A stretch of 64,000 nucleotides of DNA from Parcubacteria group bacterium Gr01-1014_3 (GTDB taxonomy: Bacteria > Patescibacteriota > Minisyncoccia > UBA6257 > WO2-44-18). This document shows, one piece after another, positions 20,159 to 45,385 of this stretch. Below the pieces are notes generated by a model. The model searched no databases. It saw only the letters and a program-made list of their open reading frames with translations, and was not told the origin of the DNA. The stretch covers positions 21,802 through 85,801 of the forward strand of contig VMGF01000001.1 of the NCBI GenBank assembly GCA_007376445.1, in the 5' to 3' direction. Position 1 is the stretch's first letter. The number at the start of each line of letters is the position of its first letter. Made by a program: the position numbers and the translations under genes.

Positions 20159-20500
20159 TTGAATGCTGTCTATATCGCGCTTGAAGCCTTGCGTTTCTCC
20201 AAGAAGGCTGGACATGGTGTCTGCCCGCGCCGGGTCGAGGAGCTCCGGATCGAAATCGAGAACGGAGCCGAAATCCATCCGATCCGGGTGAACGCTCTCG
20301 GCGACGGCACCTACACGATCAAGGACGGTCGCCATCGCGTGAAGGCGCACATCCTCGCCGGTTTCTCGGAGATTCTGGCAGTCATCGAGAATACAGCTAG
20401 CCGAATTAAACGTTTACTAAGAAAGGTTTTTGGTTTCCTCAGCCGCTCGAAAGAGCGGTTTTTTATTGTCGCTACTATCACATGTGATAGTACTATCTAG
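20159..20500 (+). CDS. ParB/sulfiredoxin-like nuclease-domain small protein (TTG start)
   Basis: IKDGRHRVKAHILAG matches ParB N-terminal DGxHR signature; GGAGG SD 6 nt before TTG; 3' end overlaps hairpin terminator and palindrome cluster. Confidence 0.5.
   Translation: MNAVYIALEALRFSKKAGHGVCPRRVEELRIEIENGAEIHPIRVNALGDGTYTIKDGRHRVKAHILAGFSEILAVIENTASRIKRLLRKVFGFLSRSKERFFIVATITCDSTI
20441..20466 (+). terminator. rho-independent terminator at 3' end of ParB-like gene
   Basis: ccgctcgaaagagcgg + ttttttatt. Confidence 0.55.
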
Positions 20501-20532
20501 CTGGATAGTACCGCTTTCCTATTGGAAAGCGG
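20475..20532. promoter_or_regulatory. palindromic operator cluster P1
   Basis: CTATCACATGTGATAG, CTATCTAGCTGGATAG, CCGCTTTCCTATTGGAAAGCGG. Confidence 0.5.
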
Positions 20533-20587
20533 TTGCGGGCGAGCTTGTTGTCTTGTAATATATGGTCGTACTTTGAAAGGATAATAA

Positions 20588-20995
20588 ATGGCTGAATGGA
20601 GCGATCGCTCGATCCTTCGGGCGCTTCCCAATCCCAGTACCGCGGGTTATGAGATTAAGATCAAGAATCCGGAGCTCACCTTCTTAGGAGTTAAGAACCA
20701 GCCGGATTTCGCTAATGTTTTTCTGACCGTTTATCCCGACAAACACATCATCGAGCTTAGGTCGCTGAAGTTGTATTTCCAGCAATTCCGCGACAAGGTG
20801 GTGTCCTACGAACGCTTAGTCAATGTCATCTATGATGATCTCGTGGAAGTTTATAAACCAACGCGCTTAAGGATCGTGATGGTTCTCCGACCCCGAGGCG
20901 GAATCAGCTCACGCCTTACGATAGATTCGGATTGGTCGGCGAGAGGAGGCAAGGAACAATTTAAAGACTGGGTCGGCCAGGCCGATGAATGGTAA
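20588..20995 (+). CDS. queF: NADPH-dependent 7-cyano-7-deazaguanine reductase (unimodular type)
   Basis: QueF motif ELRSLKLYFQQFRD (E-x-K-S-L-K-L-Y), size about 135 aa. Confidence 0.7.
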   Translation: MAEWSDRSILRALPNPSTAGYEIKIKNPELTFLGVKNQPDFANVFLTVYPDKHIIELRSLKLYFQQFRDKVVSYERLVNVIYDDLVEVYKPTRLRIVMVLRPRGGISSRLTIDSDWSARGGKEQFKDWVGQADEW

Positions 20996-34748: not shown

Positions 34749-35595
34749 AATATTTTCTCTAAAACTAGAGAATTGATGTTCCCACCGCACGGACGGTTTT
34801 CCCGTATACGGCGAGCTCAATGCATTTTTTGCTTTAGCTTATAAAGATCACGCAAACCGCTAGGAATAAGGTGTTCGCCTTTGCGGATCCTACGCATAAT
34901 CTCACAGAAAATTTGGAAATCGTACCTCTTTGAAGGAAATCGTAATCGATTTTCTTTGAAAAACGGTATAATTATTTCTGCCAAATCTGTTCTGTTAGCT
35001 ACTTCGAAACGATAGCAATGCTGATGATTTTCGCGATTGTCTTTTTGAAAGTAGACATTCCCGCATTTAAAGTATTCCTTTAAAGCATCCAGTATTACCT
35101 TATCCTTTTCGATAAGCTTTACGTAAAATCTAGGCTCTATCTTTACTCTTCTAGTTGTTCTGTTGATTTGATCAGGATTACGAACATAAGCAGTAAAACT
35201 GCCTTCGCCATCCACCAAACCAACGATGTAATCTTTAGTTAACATTGAGTGAGTGCCTTCATCCCGCTAATCGAGACTACTATGACTCAGCTGACTTCTG
35301 ACGCTGCGTCAGTTTTATGATACCTCGATATTGCTATCGAGAACAGCATCAGATCTCCACAGGTCACGTAAAATTCTCTTCTTAGCATCCTAGACAAGCC
35401 GTAGATAAAGTCTTCCCCGCCCTCACCACCCACTGGCAGGTCGACTGGCTTTGTTAATGTCTGGCTGTTATTTGCTTTCAGATCCTCCACCGAACACCTC
35501 GCGATGCTCGGCTATCTTTTAGCTACGTTCCGATGACGGACATCGGAAGAATGGATTTTAACCATTTAGAAAATTACGCTGCTGCGCGCTTTTAT
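34749..35595 (-). mobile_element. self-splicing-type intron (847 bp) in 16S rRNA near the helix-44 base (E. coli position about 1400), carrying a LAGLIDADG homing endonuclease ORF
   Basis: conserved CCTGTACTCAC | ... | CGCCCGTCA junction is split by non-rRNA sequence containing ORF 34817-35245. Confidence 0.7.
34817..35245 (-). CDS. LAGLIDADG homing endonuclease (intron-encoded)
   Basis: YIVGLVDGEGSF dodecapeptide motif, size 142 aa, located inside 16S intron. Confidence 0.8.
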   Translation of the reverse strand: MLTKDYIVGLVDGEGSFTAYVRNPDQINRTTRRVKIEPRFYVKLIEKDKVILDALKEYFKCGNVYFQKDNRENHQHCYRFEVANRTDLAEIIIPFFKENRLRFPSKRYDFQIFCEIMRRIRKGEHLIPSGLRDLYKLKQKMH

Positions 35596-35912
35596 TGTGA
35601 GTACAGGACTCGAGAACGTATTCACCGTGGTATAGCTGACCCACGATTACTAGCGATTCCAGCTTCATGAGGGCGAGTTGCAGCCCTCAATCTGAACTGA
35701 GGCCATTTTTGATGGGATTAGCTCCGCCTTGCGGCTTGGCAACCCTTTGTAATGGCCATTGTAGCACGAGTGTGGCCCAGGGCATCAGAGGGCCATGCGG
35801 ATTTGACGTCATCCCCGCCTTCCTCCGTGTTAAACACGGCAGTCTCCCGCGACATATAAAACGCAGGATAGGGGTTGCGCTCGTTAACCCACTTAAGGGA
35901 ACGCTTCAAAGT

Positions 35913-35944
<32 letters not shown>

Positions 35945-36067
35945 TCACGTCCTTGAGAGACGACGCACCTTTCGGCGCGTCTTCGTGACCATTTCAAGCC
36001 CTGGTAAGGTTCTTCGTTTATTGTCGAATTAAACCTCATGCTCCACCGCTTGTGCGAGTCCCCGTCT

Positions 36068-36099
<32 letters not shown>

Positions 36100-36609
36100 T
36101 CCCAGGCGGTCAACTTAACGCGTTAGCTACGCCACTCCGAGGGTCGATACTCGAAACAGCAAGTTGACATAGTTTAGGGCGTGGACTACAAGGGTATCTA
36201 ATCCTTTTTGCTCCCCACGCTTTCGTGCAATGAGAGTCAGGAGTGCTCCAGTTAAATGCCTTCGCCTTTGGTATTCCTCACAATATCAACGGATTTCACC
36301 CCTACACCGTGAGTTCTATTAACCTCTAGCACCCTCTAGTCAGGCCGTATCTTCTGCGAGCTTCCCGTTGAGCGGGAAGATTTTACAAAAGACGCACCCG
36401 ACCTCCTGCGCACGCTTTACGCCCAATAAATCCGGATAACGCTCGTGGCCTTCGTATTACCGCGGCTGCTGGCACGAAGTTTGCAGCCACTTATTCCATG
36501 GGTACAATCAATAACTTTTTCCCCATTAAAAGCAGTTTACGATCCGAAGACCTTCATCCTGCACGCGGCGTCGCTCGATCAGACTTTCGTCCATTGTCGA
36601 ATATTCTCG

Positions 36610-36652
<43 letters not shown>

Positions 36653-37419
36653 CGTTGGGGATCAGCCTCTCAGCCCCCCTACCGGTCATAGCCTTGGTGA
36701 GCCATTACCTCACCAACTAGCTGATCGGACCTAGGCCGCTCCCGAAGTGACTTGCGTCTTTCGTCTTTCGACAATATCGGACATTAGTCTATCTTTCGAT
36801 AGATTATTTCCGTCTTCGGGGTGCGTACCAAGGTGTTACTAACCCGTTCGCCACTATACTTTTATCTCTCTTGACTTGATATAATCTCATCTTAATTAAC
36901 AAAAGTACCGTTCGACTTGCATGCCTTATCCACGCCGCCAGCGTTCATCCTGGACCAGGATCAAATCCTCAAAAAAAATTACCGAACATTGAATTTATTT
37001 TAGTAAATTCACCATTCGCTAACTGTTGGGACAACTACAAAATTCTTGACTAAATTTTGACTCGATCTTGATTTTTAATTCTTGGTTGTGTATACAACAC
37101 ACTGCAATTTTCGAAGTTCAGTCGGCTGCGCTTTTTTAATAACGCATCCGGCCCGCTCTCCCTGAATCCCAGAGGGAACCGGCCGGATGAATTAAAACCT
37201 TTATTCACTTGTCGCCTATCTGTGAAAAGAAGTATATATGAAAGCGCTGTTTCGTGTCAACTGTCACAAAACAGCGAATTTTCAATTCTCAATTTTGCAA
37301 TTTTTGTCCCTTCGGGACATCTCCTGTAGGAAGACAATTAATTTACAATGAATTAATGTCCAAACAGTTTGATAATTTTATTTTAAGCATTGAATGAAAA
37401 TTGGTATTTGGAAATTGAA

Positions 37420-37458
37420 AAATTAAGCCCCGCTTTGCCTTAAGGCAAAGCGGGGCTG
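37420..37458 (-). terminator. terminator after lipoprotein gene
   Basis: agccccgctttgccttaaggcaaagcggggct, T-rich tract on minus strand. Confidence 0.65.
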
Positions 37459-37462
37459 GAAA

Positions 37463-38086
37463 TTACTCCTTCTTGTTCATGTCCCGGATCTTCTCCGCGA
37501 GGTCCTTCACGGTGTCAGCCACTCCGGCGAACTTCTCGAAGAGCTCCAAAAGACCCTGGGCAAAGGCGCCTTCGGACTGCTTGGAGTCGATCTTCACATA
37601 CTCATAATCGCAGTACACGAGCATGTCGTTCTTGAACATGAACAGGATCAAGAGGTCGTCGCCGTTTTGCGCTGTCTCCTTCGTGCTGAAGTAGAAGCGA
37701 TCTACGTATGTGTTCACGTCCTTGTAGGGAATGAAGATCGCGTGATACTGGTTCATGTCCCGGAGCAGGGCATCCACCTTGCTCTTGTCTTCCTCGCCCG
37801 TCTTGGTCACCTCGGCCAGCGCGCCCTGGAAAACGCCTTCTCCAAAGATCCTCCGGAAAGCCGTCCGCCCGGACAAACGCCGCACGTTCGCTGACTTGAA
37901 GTTCCAACCCGCCGACTCGAGATCCTTCGTCGCGACGCTGCCCTTGGGCTTCTTTTCGATCTCCTCGTAGGCCTTGGAGATCTTCTCGAGATCATTCTCG
38001 AAAAGACCGGTCTTCACCACGTCCGTCTTCGTGATCGTGCACCCGATTCCTAGCGGAATTAACATCGCGAAAACCAGTAGCCTCAT
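37463..38086 (-). CDS. lipoprotein, hypothetical (GC-rich gene)
   Basis: signal peptide with lipobox LGIGC; strong hairpin terminator after stop; many spurious overlapping ORFs reflect high GC. Confidence 0.55.
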   Translation of the reverse strand: MRLLVFAMLIPLGIGCTITKTDVVKTGLFENDLEKISKAYEEIEKKPKGSVATKDLESAGWNFKSANVRRLSGRTAFRRIFGEGVFQGALAEVTKTGEEDKSKVDALLRDMNQYHAIFIPYKDVNTYVDRFYFSTKETAQNGDDLLILFMFKNDMLVYCDYEYVKIDSKQSEGAFAQGLLELFEKFAGVADTVKDLAEKIRDMNKKE

Positions 38087-38883: not shown

Positions 38884-39618
38884 ATGGAAAAAACTTTCGA
38901 CAAAATCTATCTCGAAGTAAGGGCCGGAACCGGTGGCGATGAAGCTTCGATCTTCGCCGGTGATCTGGTCCATATGTATCAAAAATATGCCGTCAAACAA
39001 GGCTGGCGTTTTAGTATTTCCGATTCCTCCCCTGGCACGATCGGCGGCTACAAGACTTTCATCGGCCGCGTGGATGGCAAGGGTTGCTATGAAGCTTATA
39101 AAAATGAATCCGGCACCCATCGCGTTCAGCGAGTCCCTGCCACGGAAAAGTCCGGTCGGGTACACACTTCCACCGCCACGGTAGCGATTCTCCCGGTCGT
39201 CGAACCAAAAGAAGTTAATTTAAATCCGAGCGATCTCGAGGTTACCTTTTCCCGCGCCGGTGGCCCGGGCGGTCAGAACGTGAACAAGATCGAATCCGCA
39301 GTCCGTATTTTACATAAACCAAGCGGAATCGTGGTTTCTTGCCGTGAAGAACGAGATCAGCGCTCCAACCGCGAACGCGCTATGGAAATGCTTTTGGCTA
39401 AACTCTATGAAATGCAACGCGCCAAAGAATTTGGCGACGTCACCGAAGCCCGCCGCGCTCAAGTTGGCACCGCCGACCGCTCTGAAAAGATCCGCACCTA
39501 CAACTTCCCAGATGATCGCATCACCGACCATCGCTTTGGCGTTAAAATCCACAACGTGGAAGAAGTTTTGAATGGCAACTTTGACGCAATTCTTAAAAAG
39601 ATAAATAAGCAGCCATAA
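38884..39618 (+). CDS. prfA: peptide chain release factor 1, lacking N-terminal domain 1
   Basis: GGQ motif (AGGPGGQNVNK), RF1 codon-recognition tripeptide PAT in RVQRVPATEKSGRVHTS; protein begins at position equivalent to E. coli RF1 residue about 110. Confidence 0.8.
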   Translation: MEKTFDKIYLEVRAGTGGDEASIFAGDLVHMYQKYAVKQGWRFSISDSSPGTIGGYKTFIGRVDGKGCYEAYKNESGTHRVQRVPATEKSGRVHTSTATVAILPVVEPKEVNLNPSDLEVTFSRAGGPGGQNVNKIESAVRILHKPSGIVVSCREERDQRSNRERAMEMLLAKLYEMQRAKEFGDVTEARRAQVGTADRSEKIRTYNFPDDRITDHRFGVKIHNVEEVLNGNFDAILKKINKQP

Positions 39619-39624
39619 AGTTTA

Positions 39625-39690
39625 CCCTGAGCCCGCCGAAGGGTCATTGCGAGCCAACATTCCAACATTCTTGAGAATGTTGGAATGTTG
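39625..39690. repeat. compound repeat after prfA: GC 20-mer CCCTGAGCCCGCCGAAGGGT followed by perfect 36-bp palindrome
   Basis: CAACATTCCAACATTC-TTGA-GAATGTTGGAATGTTG at 39655-39690; 20-mer also at 12471-12490, 54811-54830, variant 58633-58653. Confidence 0.6.
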
Positions 39691-39751
39691 TGCGTGGCAA
39701 TCTTACATTTTTGCAAATAAAAAAACCCGAATCTTATGATTAGGGTTTTTG

Positions 39752-39994
39752 TTAGTGAGGTTTACCGCAATTCTCGCATTTTGGAATAAATACGGATTTT
39801 GATTTTGAGATCTTTTTTTCTTTTAGTGTAACCAATCCGTCTCCAATCAATCCCCAAATAATACTTCTCACATTATAAGACTCAAATCTGTTCTGTATCC
39901 GATCAACCAATTCTTGAGCATCTTTTGATCTTTCAGCGCTTTGAAGTTCCGTAAGAATCGTACAAATAACTTGGCAAAGCTTAGTCGGCCTCAT
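39752..39994 (-). CDS. hypothetical small protein (C-terminal CxxC)
   Basis: ORF in island; CENCGKPH tail. Confidence 0.4.
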   Translation of the reverse strand: MRPTKLCQVICTILTELQSAERSKDAQELVDRIQNRFESYNVRSIIWGLIGDGLVTLKEKKISKSKSVFIPKCENCGKPH

Positions 39995-40233
39995 CGCGCG
40001 CCTCCTTTTCTGCTCATACCGAGGTGCTTTCTCAAAACATCGCGCAGTTGTACTTGCTGTTCTTTCGTGAGCCGCAATGAGCCATCACCAGGCAAAATCG
40101 TGAAAACATACCGATCCTTATTCGGAAGCAGGTCAGAAATGGAAAACCCATATTTCTTGAGATCACGATTGATCGCCCGCTCCTTCTTCTTCAGCTGTTT
40201 CCTCAACTCTTTCGTAATCAGAACAATACCCAT
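39991..40233 (-). CDS. hypothetical small basic protein
   Basis: GGAGG SD before ATG 40233. Confidence 0.45.
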   Translation of the reverse strand: MGIVLITKELRKQLKKKERAINRDLKKYGFSISDLLPNKDRYVFTILPGDGSLRLTKEQQVQLRDVLRKHLGMSRKGGAR

Positions 40234-40290
40234 ATTCTTTCCTCCATTCAACGAACCGCCTACAAAGTAACAGTTTCAACACAAAATCAC

Positions 40291-40362
40291 AAGTACTATC
40301 ACGCGTGATAGTGCCCACCGCTTTCCCCATAGGAAAGTACTTTCCTATGGGGAAAGCGGTGG
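40291..40362. promoter_or_regulatory. palindromic operator cluster P2
   Basis: CTATCACGCGTGATAG plus 45-nt palindrome CACCGCTTTCCCCATAGGAAAGTACTTTCCTATGGGGAAAGCGGTG. Confidence 0.5.
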
Positions 40363-40403
40363 TGATAAAAATCGGCAAATAAAAAACGACGATCTTATCG
40401 TCG

Positions 40404-40655
40404 TTATCTCGATATCTCTTCGTAAGCTTTACGCAATGCCACTACTCCTGGGCATTTCTTGGTCGGGCACTTTATATTCCAGACTGACACCTTGCACTCA
40501 TCGTCAGCACGCGGGCCATACTCTATGATTTGTCCGGACTTAACCATTTTTTCGTCCGCTTTATCAAGAATAAAGTAACAGCCACAATCATGACATTTGA
40601 GCTTTTTCCCAATCCAAGATGGCGATCTTACTTTACCCTTCTTAATAATACGCAT
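40404..40655 (-). CDS. zinc-ribbon small protein
   Basis: CHDCGC...CPTKKCPG; start set at MRIIKK downstream of palindromic operator cluster. Confidence 0.45.
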   Translation of the reverse strand: MRIIKKGKVRSPSWIGKKLKCHDCGCYFILDKADEKMVKSGQIIEYGPRADDECKVSVWNIKCPTKKCPGVVALRKAYEEISR

Positions 40656-40708
40656 CTGAAATCCTTTCAAGGTACGACCACACTCTACAATAAAAAGGCT
40701 TATTTCGC

Positions 40709-40789
40709 AAGTACTATCACGCGTGATAGTACTATCCCATGTGATAGTGGCGAATATTCCATTATCCAGCCATGGCTGGATAATGGAAT
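40709..40789. promoter_or_regulatory. palindromic operator cluster P3
   Basis: CTATCACGCGTGATAG, CTATCCCATGTGATAG, TTCCATTATCCAGCCATGGCTGGATAATGGAA. Confidence 0.5.
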
Positions 40790-40801
40790 AAAACAAGCGA
40801 C

Positions 40802-41047
40802 CTATTTGGTCGCTTGGCGTAGTTGCTTGATCAGAGTATCGAACACCGCTTTCCGCATAAAATAATGAGGAGCGTGACTGCCACTCTTCCAGCGATCAAC
40901 GGTTGGCAGAGAACAACCAAATTCGCGAGCTATATCTCTTTGGGTTAAAAATCCATTATCAATAGTCATCGCGATAATCTCCTGAAAATCTTTATCGCTT
41001 TTGGTTGAGGCATTCTCGATCTTGGCGATTAGTTCTTCTCTGGTCAC
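40802..41047 (-). CDS. helix-turn-helix DNA-binding protein
   Basis: LTQRDIAREFGCSLPTVDRWKSG HTH. Confidence 0.55.
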   Translation of the reverse strand: MTREELIAKIENASTKSDKDFQEIIAMTIDNGFLTQRDIAREFGCSLPTVDRWKSGSHAPHYFMRKAVFDTLIKQLRQATK

Positions 41048-41322
41048 TTTTTACCTCGCTTCTTTTCCTGGCAGCACGGAAACTCCTTGCAATGAATATG
41101 AATTGGATTCCCACAGCCAGGACAATGAAGATAGTGTCCGTATGGGGCTCCGCCATAGCGTCCAATCGGATCGGCGATGGTTAACTTCAGCTGACATTCG
41201 CACAGGAGGCACACGACTTTATCGCCTTCCCAGCAACAGCAGGTTGTTTTGTTTTTCTTCTGACGAATCTTCTTTTCCGCTTCTTCGATAATCAGCGGCC
41301 TTCCGACTTTTAGAATCTTCAT
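41044..41322 (-). CDS. Cys-rich small protein (about 15 Cys in 92 aa)
   Basis: AGGAGG SD before ATG 41322; CCCWEGDKVVCLLCEC...CPGCGNPIHIHCKEFPCC. Confidence 0.45.
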   Translation of the reverse strand: MKILKVGRPLIIEEAEKKIRQKKNKTTCCCWEGDKVVCLLCECQLKLTIADPIGRYGGAPYGHYLHCPGCGNPIHIHCKEFPCCQEKKRGKK

Positions 41323-41332
41323 TTGACCTCCT

Positions 41333-41533
41333 TTAGGCAACCCCGAACTCGATTCGATGGCTACATGCTTTGCAGTTGAAGACGTACTTTCTTTTACTGC
41401 CGAGCCATCTTGCGCCCTTACGAACATCGTCTCCAGCTTTCAAGACATGGATTGTTTTACAGTCCTGTCTATCGCACTGAACCTGTAATCCAACCCACGG
41501 CTTCGGACTCTCATTCTTCGCATCCAGTGGCAT
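41333..41533 (-). CDS. zinc-ribbon small protein
   Basis: GGGAGG SD; CDRQDC...CKAC; preceded by conserved 60-nt double-hairpin leader. Confidence 0.5.
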   Translation of the reverse strand: MPLDAKNESPKPWVGLQVQCDRQDCKTIHVLKAGDDVRKGARWLGSKRKYVFNCKACSHRIEFGVA

Positions 41534-41550
41534 AACGCCTCCCTTTCAAA

Positions 41551-41611
41551 CCAGCGCACATAACAATTTATGTGCGCGGCCGAGCATATAAAAGGAATTC
41601 TTATGTGCTCG
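41551..41611 (-). ncRNA. conserved 60-nt double-hairpin leader element, copy 2
   Basis: see copy 1; directly upstream of GGGAGG SD of zinc-ribbon gene 41333-41533. Confidence 0.45.
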
Positions 41612-41648
41612 GGTACCGCCAGAATAGTACAACAAAACTAACTATGCC

Positions 41649-41755
41649 GCAACTGCTTTCCTATAGGAAAGCAGTTGCTATCCAGCTGGATAGCACTATC
41701 GCGCGTGATAGCATCTTCGCTTTCCTGAGGGAAAGTACTTTCCCTCAGGAAAGCG
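41649..41755. promoter_or_regulatory. palindromic operator cluster P4
   Basis: GCAACTGCTTTCCTATAGGAAAGCAGTTGC, CTATCCAGCTGGATAG, CTATCGCGCGTGATAG, CGCTTTCCTGAGGGAAAGTACTTTCCCTCAGGAAAGCG. Confidence 0.5.
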
Positions 41756-41841
41756 AAGAGCCGTGAATAAAAAAATCCCACACATAAATTATGTATGGGA
41801 CACCGGCGCAAGCTTGCCCGCCTAGGGTGGGTTAATGCGCC

Positions 41842-42153
41842 TTATCGAGCCGATCCTTTCAACTTAGAGACTGTCGGCCTCTCGTAGGATTCGGTCAGAA
41901 CGCCGAGATCCCACTTGAAGCCGAGGGCCGTCGCAAGCCGGACCATCATCTTGATGGTGATTGGAAACTCGCCATCCAGCAGTTGGGAAAGATATTCAGA
42001 TGGAATACCAACCCGCTTCGCCAACTCATCCTTGGAAATACCCCGGGCGTCGATCGCGTCATAAACCTTACTCGAGATAGCCACATGAAGTCGACTGGCC
42101 TCGCCCTGAACCTCGCGCTCAATATTCTTCCGCTTTTTCAAGATCTCATTCAT
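41842..42153 (-). CDS. XRE-family HTH transcriptional regulator
   Basis: ISKDELAKRVGIPSEYLSQLLDGE HTH_3 pattern. Confidence 0.7.
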   Translation of the reverse strand: MNEILKKRKNIEREVQGEASRLHVAISSKVYDAIDARGISKDELAKRVGIPSEYLSQLLDGEFPITIKMMVRLATALGFKWDLGVLTESYERPTVSKLKGSAR

Positions 42154-42359
42154 TTGCCCACCTCCTTACGACGCACATGCGTGCTTCGGCCACAGCTCGG
42201 ACACTGCGCCGGATTCCGGCGGAAGATCCTGGTCGTTTCAAGTCCCTCCTGTTCAATCGTAACCGATTCAACGCGCTCAACCTTGAAACTCCGTCCGCAG
42301 TTTTGGCAGTCATATTCCTCTTCGTTCTTCGGTGCCGGCTCAAGCGGTGGAAGGGTCAT
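42150..42359 (-). CDS. zinc-ribbon small protein
   Basis: CQNCG...CPSCG; translationally coupled to XRE gene. Confidence 0.5.
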   Translation of the reverse strand: MTLPPLEPAPKNEEEYDCQNCGRSFKVERVESVTIEQEGLETTRIFRRNPAQCPSCGRSTHVRRKEVGK

Positions 42360-42418
42360 TAGCTGAACTCCTTAAAGTGCTAGCCAGATAGTACAATAAA
42401 AGATTGTACTTGGCAAGC

Positions 42419-42588
42419 TTACCCACGCACTAATTTTGCTTATTCAATATTTAAATTTTCTATCTTTAAGTCTTATCTAAATCAAAACAGCGATACGCTA
42501 GGGATCACGGCTATTCGCCGCCCGCGTATCGCTGTTCATATATCTGCAAAATTAGTGCGGGGTTATCGTTTTGTTGCTAAAATTTCGG
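42419..42588. mobile_element. MITE-like 170-bp element with 17-bp terminal inverted repeats, copy 1
   Basis: TIR CCCACGCACTAATTTTGC ... GCAAAATTAGTGCGGGG; internal palindrome ACAGCGATACGC...GCGTATCGCTGT; about 90% identical to 52441-52611. Confidence 0.55.
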
Positions 42589-42754
42589 TCGAAACCAACT
42601 CCTTCGTCGGAACGTCTCGGAGGCGGTTTTGCTTGGTTCAAAAACCGCCGAGAGAGAAGAAAAGTTTGCCGCTGGAGCAAACTTATTCTGGTTCCGAAAA
42701 GGAGTTGGTTGAGGGTACCGAAATTTTAGACAAAACTGATAAAAAATGGCCCGC

Positions 42755-43294
42755 TTACGCAGGACCATTATCTTCTCCCGAACTCTTATCCTCTTCACTT
42801 TCGTCTTCTGTTTCAACTTCCCGTCGCCAGCCATCATCTCCGCTATAAATCCATTTTCCAAAATCAATCACATTCACGACGGTGTGGGATTTATCTAAGA
42901 TAACCACGCGATGTCCCAGCTTCAACTGATCGATACACATCCTAAAAACGTCCAAAGCCTCGTATAAAAGATCGGCTCGCTCAAGGCGGCACTCCTTTTC
43001 TAGCTGATTCAATTCGGCATCAACCTTTTCATCCATCGAAAAAACAAAGAAAATCCGGCGAGATCCATCTGGCAGCTGACCACAGATTAGAGTCTCGCAT
43101 CGCCAACAATACTGCACTGGAAATCCTTCTTGGTTAATTCCAATCCGGATCTGGGTATTGCAAAGATCACAGGTCAACCAGATATCGACGTATACATTGG
43201 CGTCAGGGTCGAACTCCTTCCATGACACCGTCTTGCCTCTATCTCGCAGGCTGAGTTTTCTCGCGGCGCGGCGCGCTCTGAGCCATTCTAACAT
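42755..43294 (-). CDS. hypothetical protein with CxxC...CxxC and acidic tail
   Basis: ORF, GC-rich, CDLCNTQ...CWRCETLIC. Confidence 0.5.
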   Translation of the reverse strand: MLEWLRARRAARKLSLRDRGKTVSWKEFDPDANVYVDIWLTCDLCNTQIRIGINQEGFPVQYCWRCETLICGQLPDGSRRIFFVFSMDEKVDAELNQLEKECRLERADLLYEALDVFRMCIDQLKLGHRVVILDKSHTVVNVIDFGKWIYSGDDGWRREVETEDESEEDKSSGEDNGPA

Positions 43295-43519
43295 ATGATT
43301 TCTCCTGAGGGTTTGTGAGGTTTAAAAGTACGCCAAAATAATACAAAAGAAAACGCGTTAACACAACCCCTCCTTTATTCCGCCGAGGGCTGACAAAAAG
43401 GAAGAGCGCTCGACTTACTTTCAATGATAGTGATTAAAGAAAAGAGGTGTATTGACGCGTCAGCACAGGAAATAAAAAACCCTCCGACCTAAGCCGGAGG
43501 GCAACTTAATTCTATAGCC

Positions 43520-44011
43520 CTAATGCCTTTCGAGATGCCAAGCCTTGATACATTCCCAAATCTTCCCCGTGTCTATCCACTCGCAGGCCAGCTTGAGGGT
43601 CTCCGGAGCAATCGCTTCTGCAAGTTCCTTTGGTGTCTCTAGCGGACGCGGGTGAGCACCACAACCTGTCGAGATCCACCAAACGGATTTATTATCGAAT
43701 CCAAGACCTCGAAATGGCTTCCCGAAAACATGACCGTTAAAAAAATAAACGCCGCCTAGATATCCTCGATTTCCCAATTGAATTAGCTTTTTCCCGGTTT
43801 CGGTTTTTCTGAAACCATCCACCCACTCAAAAATCCTCTTGGCATGTTCCAAGCCGTTTTTAAGACCCTCTTCCTGACGCTTGAGCTCGTCTTGTTTCGC
43901 TTTATTTCTTTTTGCTCTCTCGCTTGCCTCTTCACGATTCATTCCTGCTAACTTCTCATCGATCAGCTTCTTCATTTCATCCGGCACAAAATCATCTTTC
44001 TCGATACTCAC
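43520..44011 (-). CDS. hypothetical protein (GTG start after AGGAGG)
   Basis: charged coiled-coil N-terminus; no known domain recognised. Confidence 0.5.
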   Translation of the reverse strand: MSIEKDDFVPDEMKKLIDEKLAGMNREEASERAKRNKAKQDELKRQEEGLKNGLEHAKRIFEWVDGFRKTETGKKLIQLGNRGYLGGVYFFNGHVFGKPFRGLGFDNKSVWWISTGCGAHPRPLETPKELAEAIAPETLKLACEWIDTGKIWECIKAWHLERH

Positions 44012-44065
44012 CCTGCCTCCTTTCAATGTGCGAATATACAACACTATATCACAATACTTTGTTTT

Positions 44066-45385
44066 CTAAGAACTGATATCGTTGATGTCGTTTTGGAATT
44101 GCTGGGCGCGGATCACTACCCGTTCGCCATAACCCCAAAGATGCCGGCGCCAATTTCCGCCAGCGTAATATTTCGCCGCCGCGCAACGCTCCACGTCTAA
44201 CTTCTTACTATAAATAGCGTCACATCCCCTAGAGGCATCCTTCAAATATAAAGCCGTCGCCACGAAAGCGTCACCGTTATTCCACGGTGAAGCCGGGCTG
44301 TGTCCGGTAATATCGGCGACTTTGTCCTTGTAAAGATTCCAGGTGGACGGGATAAACTGCGCCGGTCCCATCGCGCCGCCATAAGCCCCATCTGCATTCG
44401 CGCAGGAAACGGTGATCGTATCAGGATTTATGCCCAGCGCGGCAACCAGAGCAAGAAAGGAAGGAATGTCGCGAGTCGGATGCATCGCGGTTTTGTATCC
44501 GCATTTTCCGACATTCTGGCCCAGCGCCGATTCACGATCCAGCACGGCCAGGATCATCGCCGCCCGGATGCCAGTAGCCTGTTCGGCGAACTTGGCGAAG
44601 TCATAAGCTTTTTCGAAAGTCAGCGAACCGCCGCCGAGGAGTTCGAACAAACGGCTGCGGATCTGCGCCGCGGTTTTCTTGGTCTGCTTCACAATGTCCT
44701 GATATTTCGATTCCTGGCCCTTAGTTACCGCGAGGATCGTGGCTTTTTCCTGCTTAGTGCCTTGCAGTGTTTTTTGTTGGGCGTCGTGAGCGGCCTTGAG
44801 ACGCGCGGCATCACTCCGCTTTTCCGCGAGATCCTCTTTTTCTACTATCAATCGCCCGCGAAGATTCGTAACAGTATCCACCGTCAGAGCCAAATTACCC
44901 TGGATCGAAAGACTGTTATTTACGTTATTAAAAAAATCAGAGATGCGCGGATTTTTCAAAAGTACCTCCACCAAACCGGCCCGGTCCTTTTCGTACATAT
45001 CCCTGAGCAGCCGGTAGAGCGCGGTTTTGTTGAGTTCAAGTTTATCTTCAGTAACTTTGATCTGCGATTTATTTTCGACAATCTCTTTATCCAGCCTAGC
45101 CAAGGAAAGACCGATGGCCTTTATCTGTAAATTCAGTTTGTTGATGCGCGCGTTCAACCCACTAATTTCTCCCTGTAAACTTTTCCCTTGTTTCTGATAA
45201 AGCTCGATAGTGGCTTGATCTTTCGCAATTTGCGCCTCCAATTCAGCCAGTTGTTGTTCCAAAGCCGCCCGCTCCTCCTGGCTGGTAGCGGCCAGCGAAA
45301 ATAGGCTAGGCGTGAGACCAGCTAAGAAAATAGCTATTAAAAAACCTGCCAGATACTTTGTCATCCTTATTACTATTATAACCAA
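44066..45385 (-). CDS. lytic murein transglycosylase (MltB/SLT_2-like catalytic domain) with N-terminal TM and long coiled coil
   Basis: GAMGPAQFIPSTW motif characteristic of MltB-family lytic transglycosylases. Confidence 0.7.
   Translation of the reverse strand: MVIIVIRMTKYLAGFLIAIFLAGLTPSLFSLAATSQEERAALEQQLAELEAQIAKDQATIELYQKQGKSLQGEISGLNARINKLNLQIKAIGLSLARLDKEIVENKSQIKVTEDKLELNKTALYRLLRDMYEKDRAGLVEVLLKNPRISDFFNNVNNSLSIQGNLALTVDTVTNLRGRLIVEKEDLAEKRSDAARLKAAHDAQQKTLQGTKQEKATILAVTKGQESKYQDIVKQTKKTAAQIRSRLFELLGGGSLTFEKAYDFAKFAEQATGIRAAMILAVLDRESALGQNVGKCGYKTAMHPTRDIPSFLALVAALGINPDTITVSCANADGAYGGAMGPAQFIPSTWNLYKDKVADITGHSPASPWNNGDAFVATALYLKDASRGCDAIYSKKLDVERCAAAKYYAGGNWRRHLWGYGERVVIRAQQFQNDINDISS

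Follow-up and report, generated by a model that had tools for sequence, protein, structure and literature searches.

How transcription is controlled in the candidate phyla radiation (CPR, or Patescibacteria), lineages with few regulators and tiny genomes, is a subject on which, to our knowledge, almost nothing is known. A stretch of 64,000 nucleotides from Parcubacteria group bacterium Gr01-1014_3, an uncultured bacterium of groundwater (contig VMGF01000001.1, positions 21,802 to 85,801 of the forward strand; hereafter the window) raises this question in a concrete form, as three intergenic regions of a hypervariable island of small genes beside prfA, and a fourth one 20 kb away upstream of queF, are built from the same palindromic words. 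What do these words do, and what would read them? A first-pass annotation took them for multi-operator control regions of a dimeric helix-turn-helix (HTH) repressor of the CI/Cro type. Here the window and about 15 kb of additional flank of the same contig were read (about 79 kb in total), and the clusters are labelled P0 (queF) and P1, P2 and P4 (island), with all coordinates given as window positions. We consider it fairly probable that the palindromes are operator arrays on portable promoter cassettes, most likely dependent on an activator. Such arrays would amount to a well-defined cis-regulatory code, strict in where its sites are placed, in a lineage for which regulatory knowledge is scant.

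All four palindromic stretches are present and read as the first-pass annotation described them. The three words that it had distinguished are variants of a single 16-bp dyad template, CTWTC-N6-GAWAG, with pyrimidine-purine (YR) flanks, (YR)CTWTC-N6-GAWAG(YR), and are not independent motifs: word a is CTATCAC(G/A)(C/T)GTGATAG, word b is CTATCCAGCTGGATAG (CTATCC-N4-GGATAG) and word c is CTTTCC-N4-GGAAAG. In the 64 kb, CTATC-N6-GATAG has seven matches against 0.02 expected, and GCTTTCC-N(2-8)-GGAAAG occurs at four loci (eight strand matches) against 0.04 expected. The relaxed template CTWTC-N6-GAWAG finds 11 perfect sites, which make 13 together with two 17-bp variants of word c (40321-40337 and 40340-40356). 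All 13 fall inside the four clusters, at two to five sites per cluster, and none lies in the rest of the window or in the 15-kb flank. The clustering of the words is real and far beyond chance. Fifty Markov shuffles, taken as the baseline for palindrome length, gave no zero-spacer palindrome longer than 20 bp, while the clusters reach 48 bp:

40315-40362: perfect zero-spacer palindrome, 48 bp
41714-41759: perfect zero-spacer palindrome, 46 bp
40755-40790: perfect zero-spacer palindrome, 36 bp
41649-41678: perfect zero-spacer palindrome, 30 bp
40710-40733: perfect zero-spacer palindrome, 24 bp
20473-20492 and 41676-41695: perfect zero-spacer palindromes, 20 bp each

The earlier description of the palindromes as perfect is right for several of them (24-48 bp) and does not extend to the words at 20493 (CTATCTAGCTGGATAG), 40732 (CTATCCCATGTGATAG), 41696 (CTATCGCGCGTGATAG) and 20514 (CTTTCCTATTGGAAAG), which are imperfect. 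A dispersed repeat, of the kind represented by repetitive extragenic palindromes (REP) or miniature inverted-repeat transposable elements (MITE), can be rejected for the 79 kb read, in which there are only four clusters, all promoter-proximal and each at a fixed offset from a -35 hexamer.

The anatomy of the clusters follows a common plan. The island (39.7-44 kb, minus strand, beside prfA) encodes small proteins, among them four zinc ribbons (Zn69, Zn66, Zn93 and a protein of 83 residues), an XRE-type HTH protein of 103 residues (XRE103), a DUF3853-type HTH protein of 81 residues (HTH81) and a winged-helix-like orphan of 80 residues (wHTH80); proteins of 179, 174 and 80 residues are without a family. 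All four clusters are intergenic and, along the direction of transcription, run from the intrinsic terminator of the upstream gene through the sites to a weak predicted promoter of the sigma-70 type, as listed here from P0 to P4:

20441-20460, plus strand: intrinsic terminator of the upstream ParB_N-like open reading frame (ORF), abutting P0 (terminator scan; 8-bp stem, then TTTTTTATT)
20475-20490: P0 site a, CTATCACATGTGATAG, within the 20-bp perfect palindrome 20473-20492
20493-20508: P0 site b, CTATCTAGCTGGATAG, imperfect, starting 18 bp after the start of site a
20514-20529: P0 site c, CTTTCCTATTGGAAAG, promoter-proximal, its arms extending to ACCG/CGGT over 20510-20533
20533-20587, plus strand: predicted queF promoter and leader; -35 TTGCGG 20533-20538, 17-bp spacer, -10 TAATAT 20556-20561
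20564-20581, plus strand: queF leader GGTCGTACTTTGAAAGGA; queF start codon at 20588
40385-40405, minus strand: intrinsic terminator of the 83-residue zinc-ribbon gene, abutting P1
40315-40362: P1 distal mirror pair of 17-bp c sites (40321-40337 and 40340-40356), a 48-bp perfect palindrome with centre AGTACT
40296-40311: P1 proximal site a, CTATCACGCGTGATAG
40234-40292, minus strand: predicted P1 promoter and leader; -35 TTGTGA 40292-40287, -10 TACTTT 40269-40264, leader GGCGGTTCGTTGAATGGAGGA
39991-40233 and 39752-39994, minus strand: genes that the predicted P1 promoter would drive
40794-40816, minus strand: intrinsic terminator of the HTH81 gene, abutting P2
40755-40790: P2 distal 36-bp perfect palindrome TATTCCATTATCCAGCCATGGCTGGATAATGGAATA, with b-like arms TTATCCAG/CTGGATAA split by 6 extra bp
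40732-40747: P2 site a', CTATCCCATGTGATAG, in tandem with site a at 18 bp
40714-40729: P2 site a, proximal, within the 24-bp palindrome 40710-40733
40656-40710, minus strand: predicted P2 promoter and leader; -35 TTGCGA 40710-40705, -10 TAGAGT 40687-40682
40679-40662, minus strand: P2 leader GGTCGTACCTTGAAAGGA; the predicted P2 promoter would drive the zinc-ribbon gene 40404-40655
41775-41801, minus strand: intrinsic terminator of the Zn69-XRE103 operon, abutting P4
41714-41759: P4 distal mirror pair of c sites (41720-41735 and 41738-41753), a 46-bp perfect palindrome with centre AGTACT
41696-41711: site a of the P4 proximal triplet, the farthest of the three from the promoter
41678-41693: P4 site b, within a 20-bp palindrome
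41656-41671: P4 site c, nearest the promoter, within the 30-bp palindrome 41649-41678
41534-41652, minus strand: predicted P4 promoter; -35 TTGCGG 41652-41647, -10 TACTAT 41629-41624
41333-41533, 41044-41325 and 40802-41047 (HTH81), minus strand: genes that the predicted P4 promoter would drive

Whichever word it carries (c at P0 and P4, a at P1 and P2), the proximal site ends exactly 3 nt before the -35 hexamer in four of four clusters, with its centre 11.5 bp upstream of the -35, at about -46.5. The chance of finding NNN-TTG at all four is about 6e-8. Distal sites follow mostly at steps of 18 bp, with additional steps of 21-24 bp at P0 and P4. No site overlaps a -10 or a start site, all of them being upstream of the -35, and there is no divergent promoter pair at any of the clusters. 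Promoter positions were predicted from the conserved spacing in the aligned cassettes, and in the window take the form TTGNNN-17-TAnnnT (TTGCGG/TAATAT, TTGTGA/TACTTT, TTGCGA/TAGAGT and TTGCGG/TACTAT). Behind the -10 there is a leader of about 20 nt, GGTCGTACYTTGAAAGGA at P0 and P2 and GGCGGTTCGTTGAATGGAGGA at P1, and its motif GT[AT]C.TT[GT]AA[AT]GGA occurs at three places in the 64 kb, namely P0, P1 and P2. The predicted P4 transcript (41534-41617, minus strand) begins instead with a leader of about 85 nt carrying two hairpins, CCGAGCACATAAGAATTCCTTTTATATGCTCGG and GCGCACATAAATTGTTATGTGCGC, ahead of the Zn66 gene, without an Rfam match.

Is it the sequence of the words or only their symmetry that is maintained? 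A paralogous pair of arrays, P0 and the promoter-proximal portion of P4, agrees in the order a-b-c and in the -35 hexamer, TTGCGG. Comparing the two gives 0 differences in 30 positions of the 5-bp arms and 9 in 28 positions of the centres and linkers (Fisher p = 6e-4). Selection thus acts on the sequence of the arms and not only on structure; arms that stay invariant while centres and linkers drift fit recognition by a protein and would not result from a pure hairpin constraint. The long palindromes are either mirror pairs of c sites (40315-40362 and 41714-41759) or single sites whose symmetry has spread into non-conserved flanks, reaching into the -35 itself (GCAACTG...CAGTTGC at 41649-41678; TTCAAGTG...CACTTGAA in a related island, L130). 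Template switching, by which imperfect palindromes are corrected, is a known mutational process. Judging from the sequence, template switching between arms that perfects an imperfect palindrome, a tetramer with its dyad on the linker, or a cruciform are all possible origins of the long palindromes. Single-strand folding of these gives -14 to -27 kcal/mol with z-scores of -6 to -14, which allows the cruciform option without proving it.

The placement rule is kept in relatives. Contigs carrying members of the HTH81 or XRE103 families led to two related islands, one of 2.1 kb (L125) and one of 5.2 kb (L130), the latter again next to prfA, and the rule "site end + 3 nt + TTGNNN-16/17-TAnnnT" holds at eight of eight site-bearing promoters (four in the window, one in L125 and three in L130). 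The four arrays of the related islands are:

array 1: [CTATTCCATTTAATAG]gt[CTATTCCATGGGATAG]caC-TTGAAG
array 2: [CTATTACATGTAATAG]tg[CTATCCCATAGGATAG]caC-TTGAAG
array 3: [CTTTCCTACAGGAAAG]caC-TTGAAG
array 4: [CTTTCCCACAGGAAAG]cg[CTTTCCTGTAGGAAAG]cgC-TTGAAG

At an orthologous lipoprotein promoter, the a/b-type sites of L125 have c-c sites as their counterpart in L130, a swap which indicates that the words are interchangeable in function. The 21-nt leader of P1 also precedes unrelated genes in both islands, and the recurrence of one promoter-leader module ahead of unrelated genes in different genomes argues that the module is portable. Close relatives differ in which genes lie between the arrays, while they have the array-promoter-leader modules in common, in mosaic form. 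The arrays themselves are gained or lost quickly, given that L130 has no sites behind the XRE gene (the P4 position) and L125 none behind the HTH gene (the P2 position); in L125 the P4 position does not exist, as the XRE gene runs directly into the HTH gene.

The same vocabulary extends to a more distant genome. A metagenome scan for the c-c pair returned seven loci, one of them a Hainich relative and two of them (L134 and L136) overlapping contigs of a different, CPR-like genome with 35% GC, carrying mnmA, tyrS, rpsL, rpsG and toxin-antitoxin pairs of the HicAB type. These contigs hold a triple c array, another c word, the variant CACTATGACGCGTCATAGTG and the exact 18-mer of the window, ACTATCACGCGTGATAGT:

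689-708, 928-945, 1805-1849 and 3755-3774 of L134 (also on L136): words near the HicAB-type pairs

Since L134 was retrieved by the c pattern alone and yet holds the a-word 18-mer, it provides independent evidence that a and c form one system. The sites there again follow terminators and precede small operons. No protein is common to L134/L136 and the window or its flanks, and neither a homologue of XRE103 nor any other island protein was found on the 6-8 kb of L134. Words held in common with an unrelated CPR contig favour a conserved binding factor that is not linked to the island.

How did queF come to carry such an array? Its product is an NADPH-dependent reductase (Pfam QueF), and the cassette upstream of the gene is a mosaic of a P4-type a-b-c operator and a P2-type leader. 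Orthologues at 77-82% identity at three loci (L141, L142 and L143/L144) have neither palindromes upstream nor a ParB_N-like neighbour, from which it follows that the link to queF is a recent cassette capture and not a conserved regulon. The idea that one regulator ties the island to queF is supported by the common vocabulary and may hold in this strain, although not as a conserved regulon. Likewise, the comparative check of the palindromes proposed in the first-pass annotation has two outcomes: the site rule is kept in L125 and L130, and the queF array is absent from the orthologues. The upstream "ParB-like gene" of that annotation is an ORF of 113 amino acids (20159-20500) without an HTH, matching ParB_N below the Pfam cutoff (19.6 against 26.3 bits); it runs through its own terminator hairpin and ends inside site a, which suggests that the cassette replaced its original 3' end. 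A parS/ParB centromere is rejected, given the short ORF with its sub-cutoff domain and the 20 kb that separate three of the four clusters from it. No preQ1 riboswitch precedes queF in a whole-window Rfam search at gathering threshold, which returned only 16S rRNA, a tRNA and a group II intron fragment; likewise there is no significant Rfam match in the clusters region 39500-44200, and a reading of the clusters as known RNAs is rejected, as no Rfam family fits. The queF case illustrates how promoter-operator cassettes could be copied between unrelated genes.

What mechanism could account for such cassettes? Each array would be a set of predicted 16-bp dyad protein-binding sites that fills the gap between a terminator and a weak promoter, and a single dimeric regulator or a small set of related ones would sit on them, bringing four units under joint control, namely queF and three transcription units of the island. 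With its centre at about -46.5, a protein on the proximal site could activate through contact with RNA polymerase. Activation seems likelier than repression, because no site overlaps a -10 or a start and because the site-bearing -35 hexamers (TTGCGG, TTGTGA, TTGCGA and TTGAAG) match the consensus at 3-4 of 6 positions, against 5-6 of 6 in the site-free promoters of the XRE operon (TTGCCA in the window, TTGACA in L125 and TTGCAA in L130). Array, promoter and the leader of about 20 nt would form a cassette of about 150 bp that has been duplicated and recombined, and the palindromes of 30-48 bp may reflect perfecting at the DNA level through template switching between arms, or a tetramer on paired sites.

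Several observations weigh against operator arrays of this kind. Centres and flanks that are not conserved are nonetheless perfectly symmetric (48 and 46 bp, and GCAACTG/CAGTTGC into the -35), which exceeds what a dimer needs and hints at a structural or mutational cause. The predicted promoters match the consensus at 7-8 of 12 positions, which is below the threshold of a promoter scan, and their placement comes from the alignment. An 18-bp phase would put neighbouring dimers on different faces of the helix, which is unusual for simple cooperative binding. On L134 about 120-150 bp separate the sites from the likely promoters, and the coding sequence of mnmA contains a perfect 20-bp c word, TGCTTTCCTTAAGGAAAGCA, so that the -35 rule is not universal and is specific to the lineage of the window. 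Finally, there is no candidate binder that is both conserved and linked, and all island proteins are of narrow lineage.

A parallel for the grammar of the arrays comes from outside the CPR. A genome scan for tandem CTATC-N6-GATAG-N2-CTATC-N6-GATAG found at least 119 loci, mostly in Bacteroidota, where two to four copies of (T/G)(A/C)CTATCC-N4-GGATAG(T/C)(A/G) at an 18-bp phase lie between a regulator of the HxlR/DUF24 family and an azoreductase-like or DoxX-like gene (examples among L006-L124 are L025 6682-6715 and L075 1438-1471). Among the matches listed, 104 of 119 loci have an HxlR-like ORF within 300 bp, and 19 of 85 distinct pairs are perfect mirror pairs with asymmetric centres, against 1.6 expected. 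The window and these arrays have in common the 16-bp dyad, TATC(A/C)-N4-(T/G)GATA arms, the 18-bp tandem phase, YR linkers (CG, TG, CA and TA in Bacteroidota) and frequent mirror pairs (perfect palindromes of about 34 bp in the HxlR arrays). In Bacillus subtilis, the DUF24 regulator HypR is an activator of hypO that recognizes GTATCAAAATTGATAC at -53 to -95, and its box, TATCA-N4-TGATA, is upstream of the activated promoter (PMC3351151); the window arrays are likewise upstream of their promoters, a position that goes with activation in HypR. The two systems also differ: words a and c depart from the Bacteroidota consensus at position 6 and position 3, respectively, the window arrays abut the -35 of co-directional genes whereas the Bacteroidota arrays occupy the divergent region between regulator and target, and the 79 kb yielded no gene of the HxlR family (two HxlR proteins used as phmmer queries, with E up to 10, matched nothing in the window; the flank gene tables, L126 and L128, list no HxlR-type Pfam family). 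An array of the HxlR/DUF24 class would be expected to serve redox or electrophile-detoxifying NAD(P)H oxidoreductases; the predicted targets of the window arrays are queF, for an NADPH-dependent reductase, and genes for small zinc-ribbon or HTH proteins. By analogy, the grammar appears to be the same, as a matter of resemblance and not of membership. Why paired operators so often turn into long perfect palindromes is a general question, which concerns the Bacteroidota arrays as well.

The tandem scan also matched three CPR loci (L065 3373-3406, L018 3265-3298 and L047 2826-2859), none of which has an HxlR gene nearby. Two CPR genomes carry a perfect b-b mirror pair upstream of argS; the pair in L065 is situated just beyond the 3' end of a TrpR/YerC-like gene. 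A search with that protein, from a Harrisonbacteria locus, found no homologue in the window or flanks. In a metagenome-assembled genome of Saccharibacteria, a b-b pair is near the ends of two short contigs with duplicated smpB, which looks like an assembly break at the palindrome.

Which protein, then, would read the arrays? The island offers three candidate HTH regulators, one of them in an operon with a zinc ribbon:

41842-42359, minus strand: operon of Zn69 (42150-42359) and XRE103 (41842-42153), candidate regulators (Pfam HTH_3, HTH_37)
40802-41047, minus strand: HTH81, DUF3853-type HTH, candidate regulator read from the P4 array (Pfam DUF3853, 27.9 bits against a cutoff of 22.1)
39752-39994, minus strand: wHTH80, candidate regulator of 80 residues read from the P1 array (AlphaFold2 topology H-H-H-beta-beta; predicted local distance difference test, pLDDT, 69)

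HTH81 matches a PHROG of transcriptional regulators and has paralogues behind a c-site promoter in L130, its family comprising two clusters among 5.8 billion proteins. wHTH80 weakly resembles the winged helices of DtxR/MntR and has no homologue among 1.8 billion representative proteins; as an orphan, it is rejected as a general binder. A sequence search of the PDB with XRE103, HTH81 and wHTH80 returned nothing. Zn69 and XRE103 overlap by 4 nt (ATGA) and match HTH_37; together they resemble, as we presume, a split protein of the MqsA type, in which a zinc ribbon is joined to an XRE domain. The two genes downstream of P1 (39991-40233 and 39752-39994) also overlap by 4 nt, like many toxin-antitoxin pairs.

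The first-pass annotation had chosen the XRE protein for its adjacency. In that reading XRE103, alone or with Zn69, would bind all the words and run a CI/Cro-like switch over the island and queF, which we hold to be rather unlikely. XRE103 is a genuine HTH of the Cro/CI type (HTH_3 at 33 bits), and its modelled generic Cro/CI fold (pLDDT 62) matches ClgR, HipB, HigA, C.AhdI and the 434 repressor; the Zn69-XRE operon is present in three of three site-carrying islands, and word a and the lambda operator consensus have the arms TATCAC/GTGATA in common. The operon's own promoter (-35 TTGCCA 42416-42411, -10 TACTAT 42393-42388) is near consensus and free of vocabulary sites in the window, L125 and L130. 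This can be taken in two ways: such a promoter is expected of a constitutive master regulator, and its contrast with the weak site-bearing promoters fits a constitutive regulator operon feeding activator-dependent ones, yet it leaves XRE103 without an autoregulatory site in three genomes, and the contrast does not support singling it out over Zn69, HTH81 or wHTH80. Moreover, P4 lies beyond the XRE operon terminator and belongs to the next operon, the corresponding position in L130 is site-free, the overlaps and divergent promoters of a CI/Cro switch are absent, and the XRE103 family has only four clusters among 5.8 billion proteins, yet the words occur on L134, whose 6-8 kb contain no homologue. 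The alternative of an unlinked, widely conserved winged-helix regulator of the HxlR/DUF24 (MarR-like) type, whose operators would have spread onto the island promoters and queF, appears possible, though we incline against it in this specific form. It would explain a grammar identical to that of the Bacteroidota arrays, down to the b word, the GGAAAG variants and the mirror pairs, the HypR box upstream of an activated promoter, and words common to distant CPR lineages, which the island proteins are not. The lack of an HxlR gene in the 79 kb and near the CPR matches, and the departing a and c words speak against it, and the likeness could be convergence on a common dyad geometry. Among the binders as such, an unlinked conserved regulator, HxlR-like or other, is our tentative first choice, held with less than even confidence; XRE103 is unlikely, HTH81 somewhat more so, a zinc-ribbon protein quite improbable, and wHTH80 very improbable. 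That the palindromes bind no protein at all we rate as low as the zinc ribbon. In all, between four and eight promoters emerge as targets, the island supplies three candidate binders, and the HxlR-type grammar adds a lead from outside.

Two further explanations dispense with a regulator. The palindromes might act as DNA cruciforms or hairpins, or as hairpins of read-through RNA, serving as insulators or back-up terminators between packed transcription units. That several of them show no mismatch over 30-48 bp, even in centres and flanks that are not conserved, that they fold as strongly as described above, that they always follow a terminator, and that several short contigs of related samples end near palindromes would all agree with this. 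It nevertheless fails to explain arms of 5-6 bp that are kept while the rest drifts, or the fixed 3-bp offset to the -35; imperfect 16-bp words fold weakly (-4 to -7 kcal/mol) and yet interchange with the long ones, and the long hairpins have no U-tract after them and no Rfam match. We regard this explanation as improbable. Still less probable is that the words serve as recombination sites or delimit a small mobile promoter element, by which island cassettes would be shuffled and queF would have received its array. The differing gene content among close relatives with conserved, mosaic modules, the lineage-specific queF array and the ParB_N-like ORF that passes its own terminator to stop inside site a are what such an element might leave behind. 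However, no integrase, recombinase or transposase is in or beside the island, nor do PADLOC and PHROGs suggest one, the arms, at 5-6 bp, are on the short side for a recombinase core site, no duplication of a target site came to light, and homologous recombination between repeated promoter modules of about 100 bp explains the mosaicism. Returning to operator arrays, a bolder extension, which we think unlikely, would hold the words to be a common CPR vocabulary, whose portable cassettes are read by a conserved CPR regulator, wire accessory islands of small genes (toxin-antitoxin-like, zinc-ribbon and HTH) and may capture housekeeping genes such as queF; the mirror pairs of 46-48 bp would then be cruciform or tetramer switches and not simple operators.

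Comparison with other known systems helps to place the arrays. Lambdoid CI/Cro operators likewise have several adjacent dyad sites, and an XRE-type HTH gene adjoins one cluster here; lambda CI at OR2 activates from near the -35, as a protein on the proximal site of the window could. The first-pass annotation was therefore apt as to the multi-site operator anatomy and not as to the CI/Cro type, since all window sites lie upstream of a single co-directional -35 with none on the -10, whereas lambdoid sites overlap the -35 and -10 of two divergent promoters. Window sites measure 16 bp at an 18-bp phase, against 17 bp and 23-24 bp in lambdoid OR/OL; the XRE gene is not autoregulated through these sites, unlike a lambdoid repressor; and there is no phage context. 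Viral-contig scans (tandem a/b, c-c, a+CTATC and the exact 18-mer) gave 0 matches each, blastn of P4 against phage and plasmid collections found none, and a phage or plasmid origin is rejected on these grounds. The C proteins of restriction-modification systems (C.Esp1396I, C.AhdI) are small dimers of the XRE fold, C.AhdI being among the fold matches of XRE103. Two C-protein dimer sites form a larger, near-perfect palindrome of about 35 bp by the -35, from which the protein activates through RNA polymerase contact. The window arrays differ in being longer (up to five sites) and in serving several unrelated small genes; the C-box GACT-N3-AGTC is absent from the sequence and restriction-modification domains from the island. 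Mobile promoters and REP/MITE elements resemble the cassettes as repeated intergenic palindromic modules of about 150 bp before unrelated genes, mosaic between copies. The window differs from them in having only four copies in 79 kb, each pointing the same way as the gene downstream of it, and in arm-specific selection, and no terminal inverted repeats or target duplications were identified at its cassettes. An integron attC array is rejected, as there is no integrase, each cassette has its own promoter-like element and the palindromes are perfect. A defence or phage annotation of the island is also rejected, PADLOC and PHROGs having given only generic HTH matches.

Some other features of the window deserve mention. 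Where the island borders on prfA, a 36-bp palindrome of doubled CAACATTC units (CAACATTCCAACATTCT-CA-AGAATGTTGGAATGTTG; 39655-39690) occupies the gap from the last terminator of the island to the 3' end of that gene; it stands outside the vocabulary and could terminate transcription in both directions or mark a junction of the island. The minus-strand gene 37463-38086 has directly downstream of it a perfect palindrome of 32 bp, AGCCCCGCTTTGCCTTAAGGCAAAGCGGGGCT (37426-37457), whose sequence is unrelated to that of the words and which probably acts as a terminator. Behind the 16S rRNA gene (35550-36976, minus strand) come a D1-D4 fragment of a group II intron (35254-35345) and a LAGLIDADG ORF (34817-35245).

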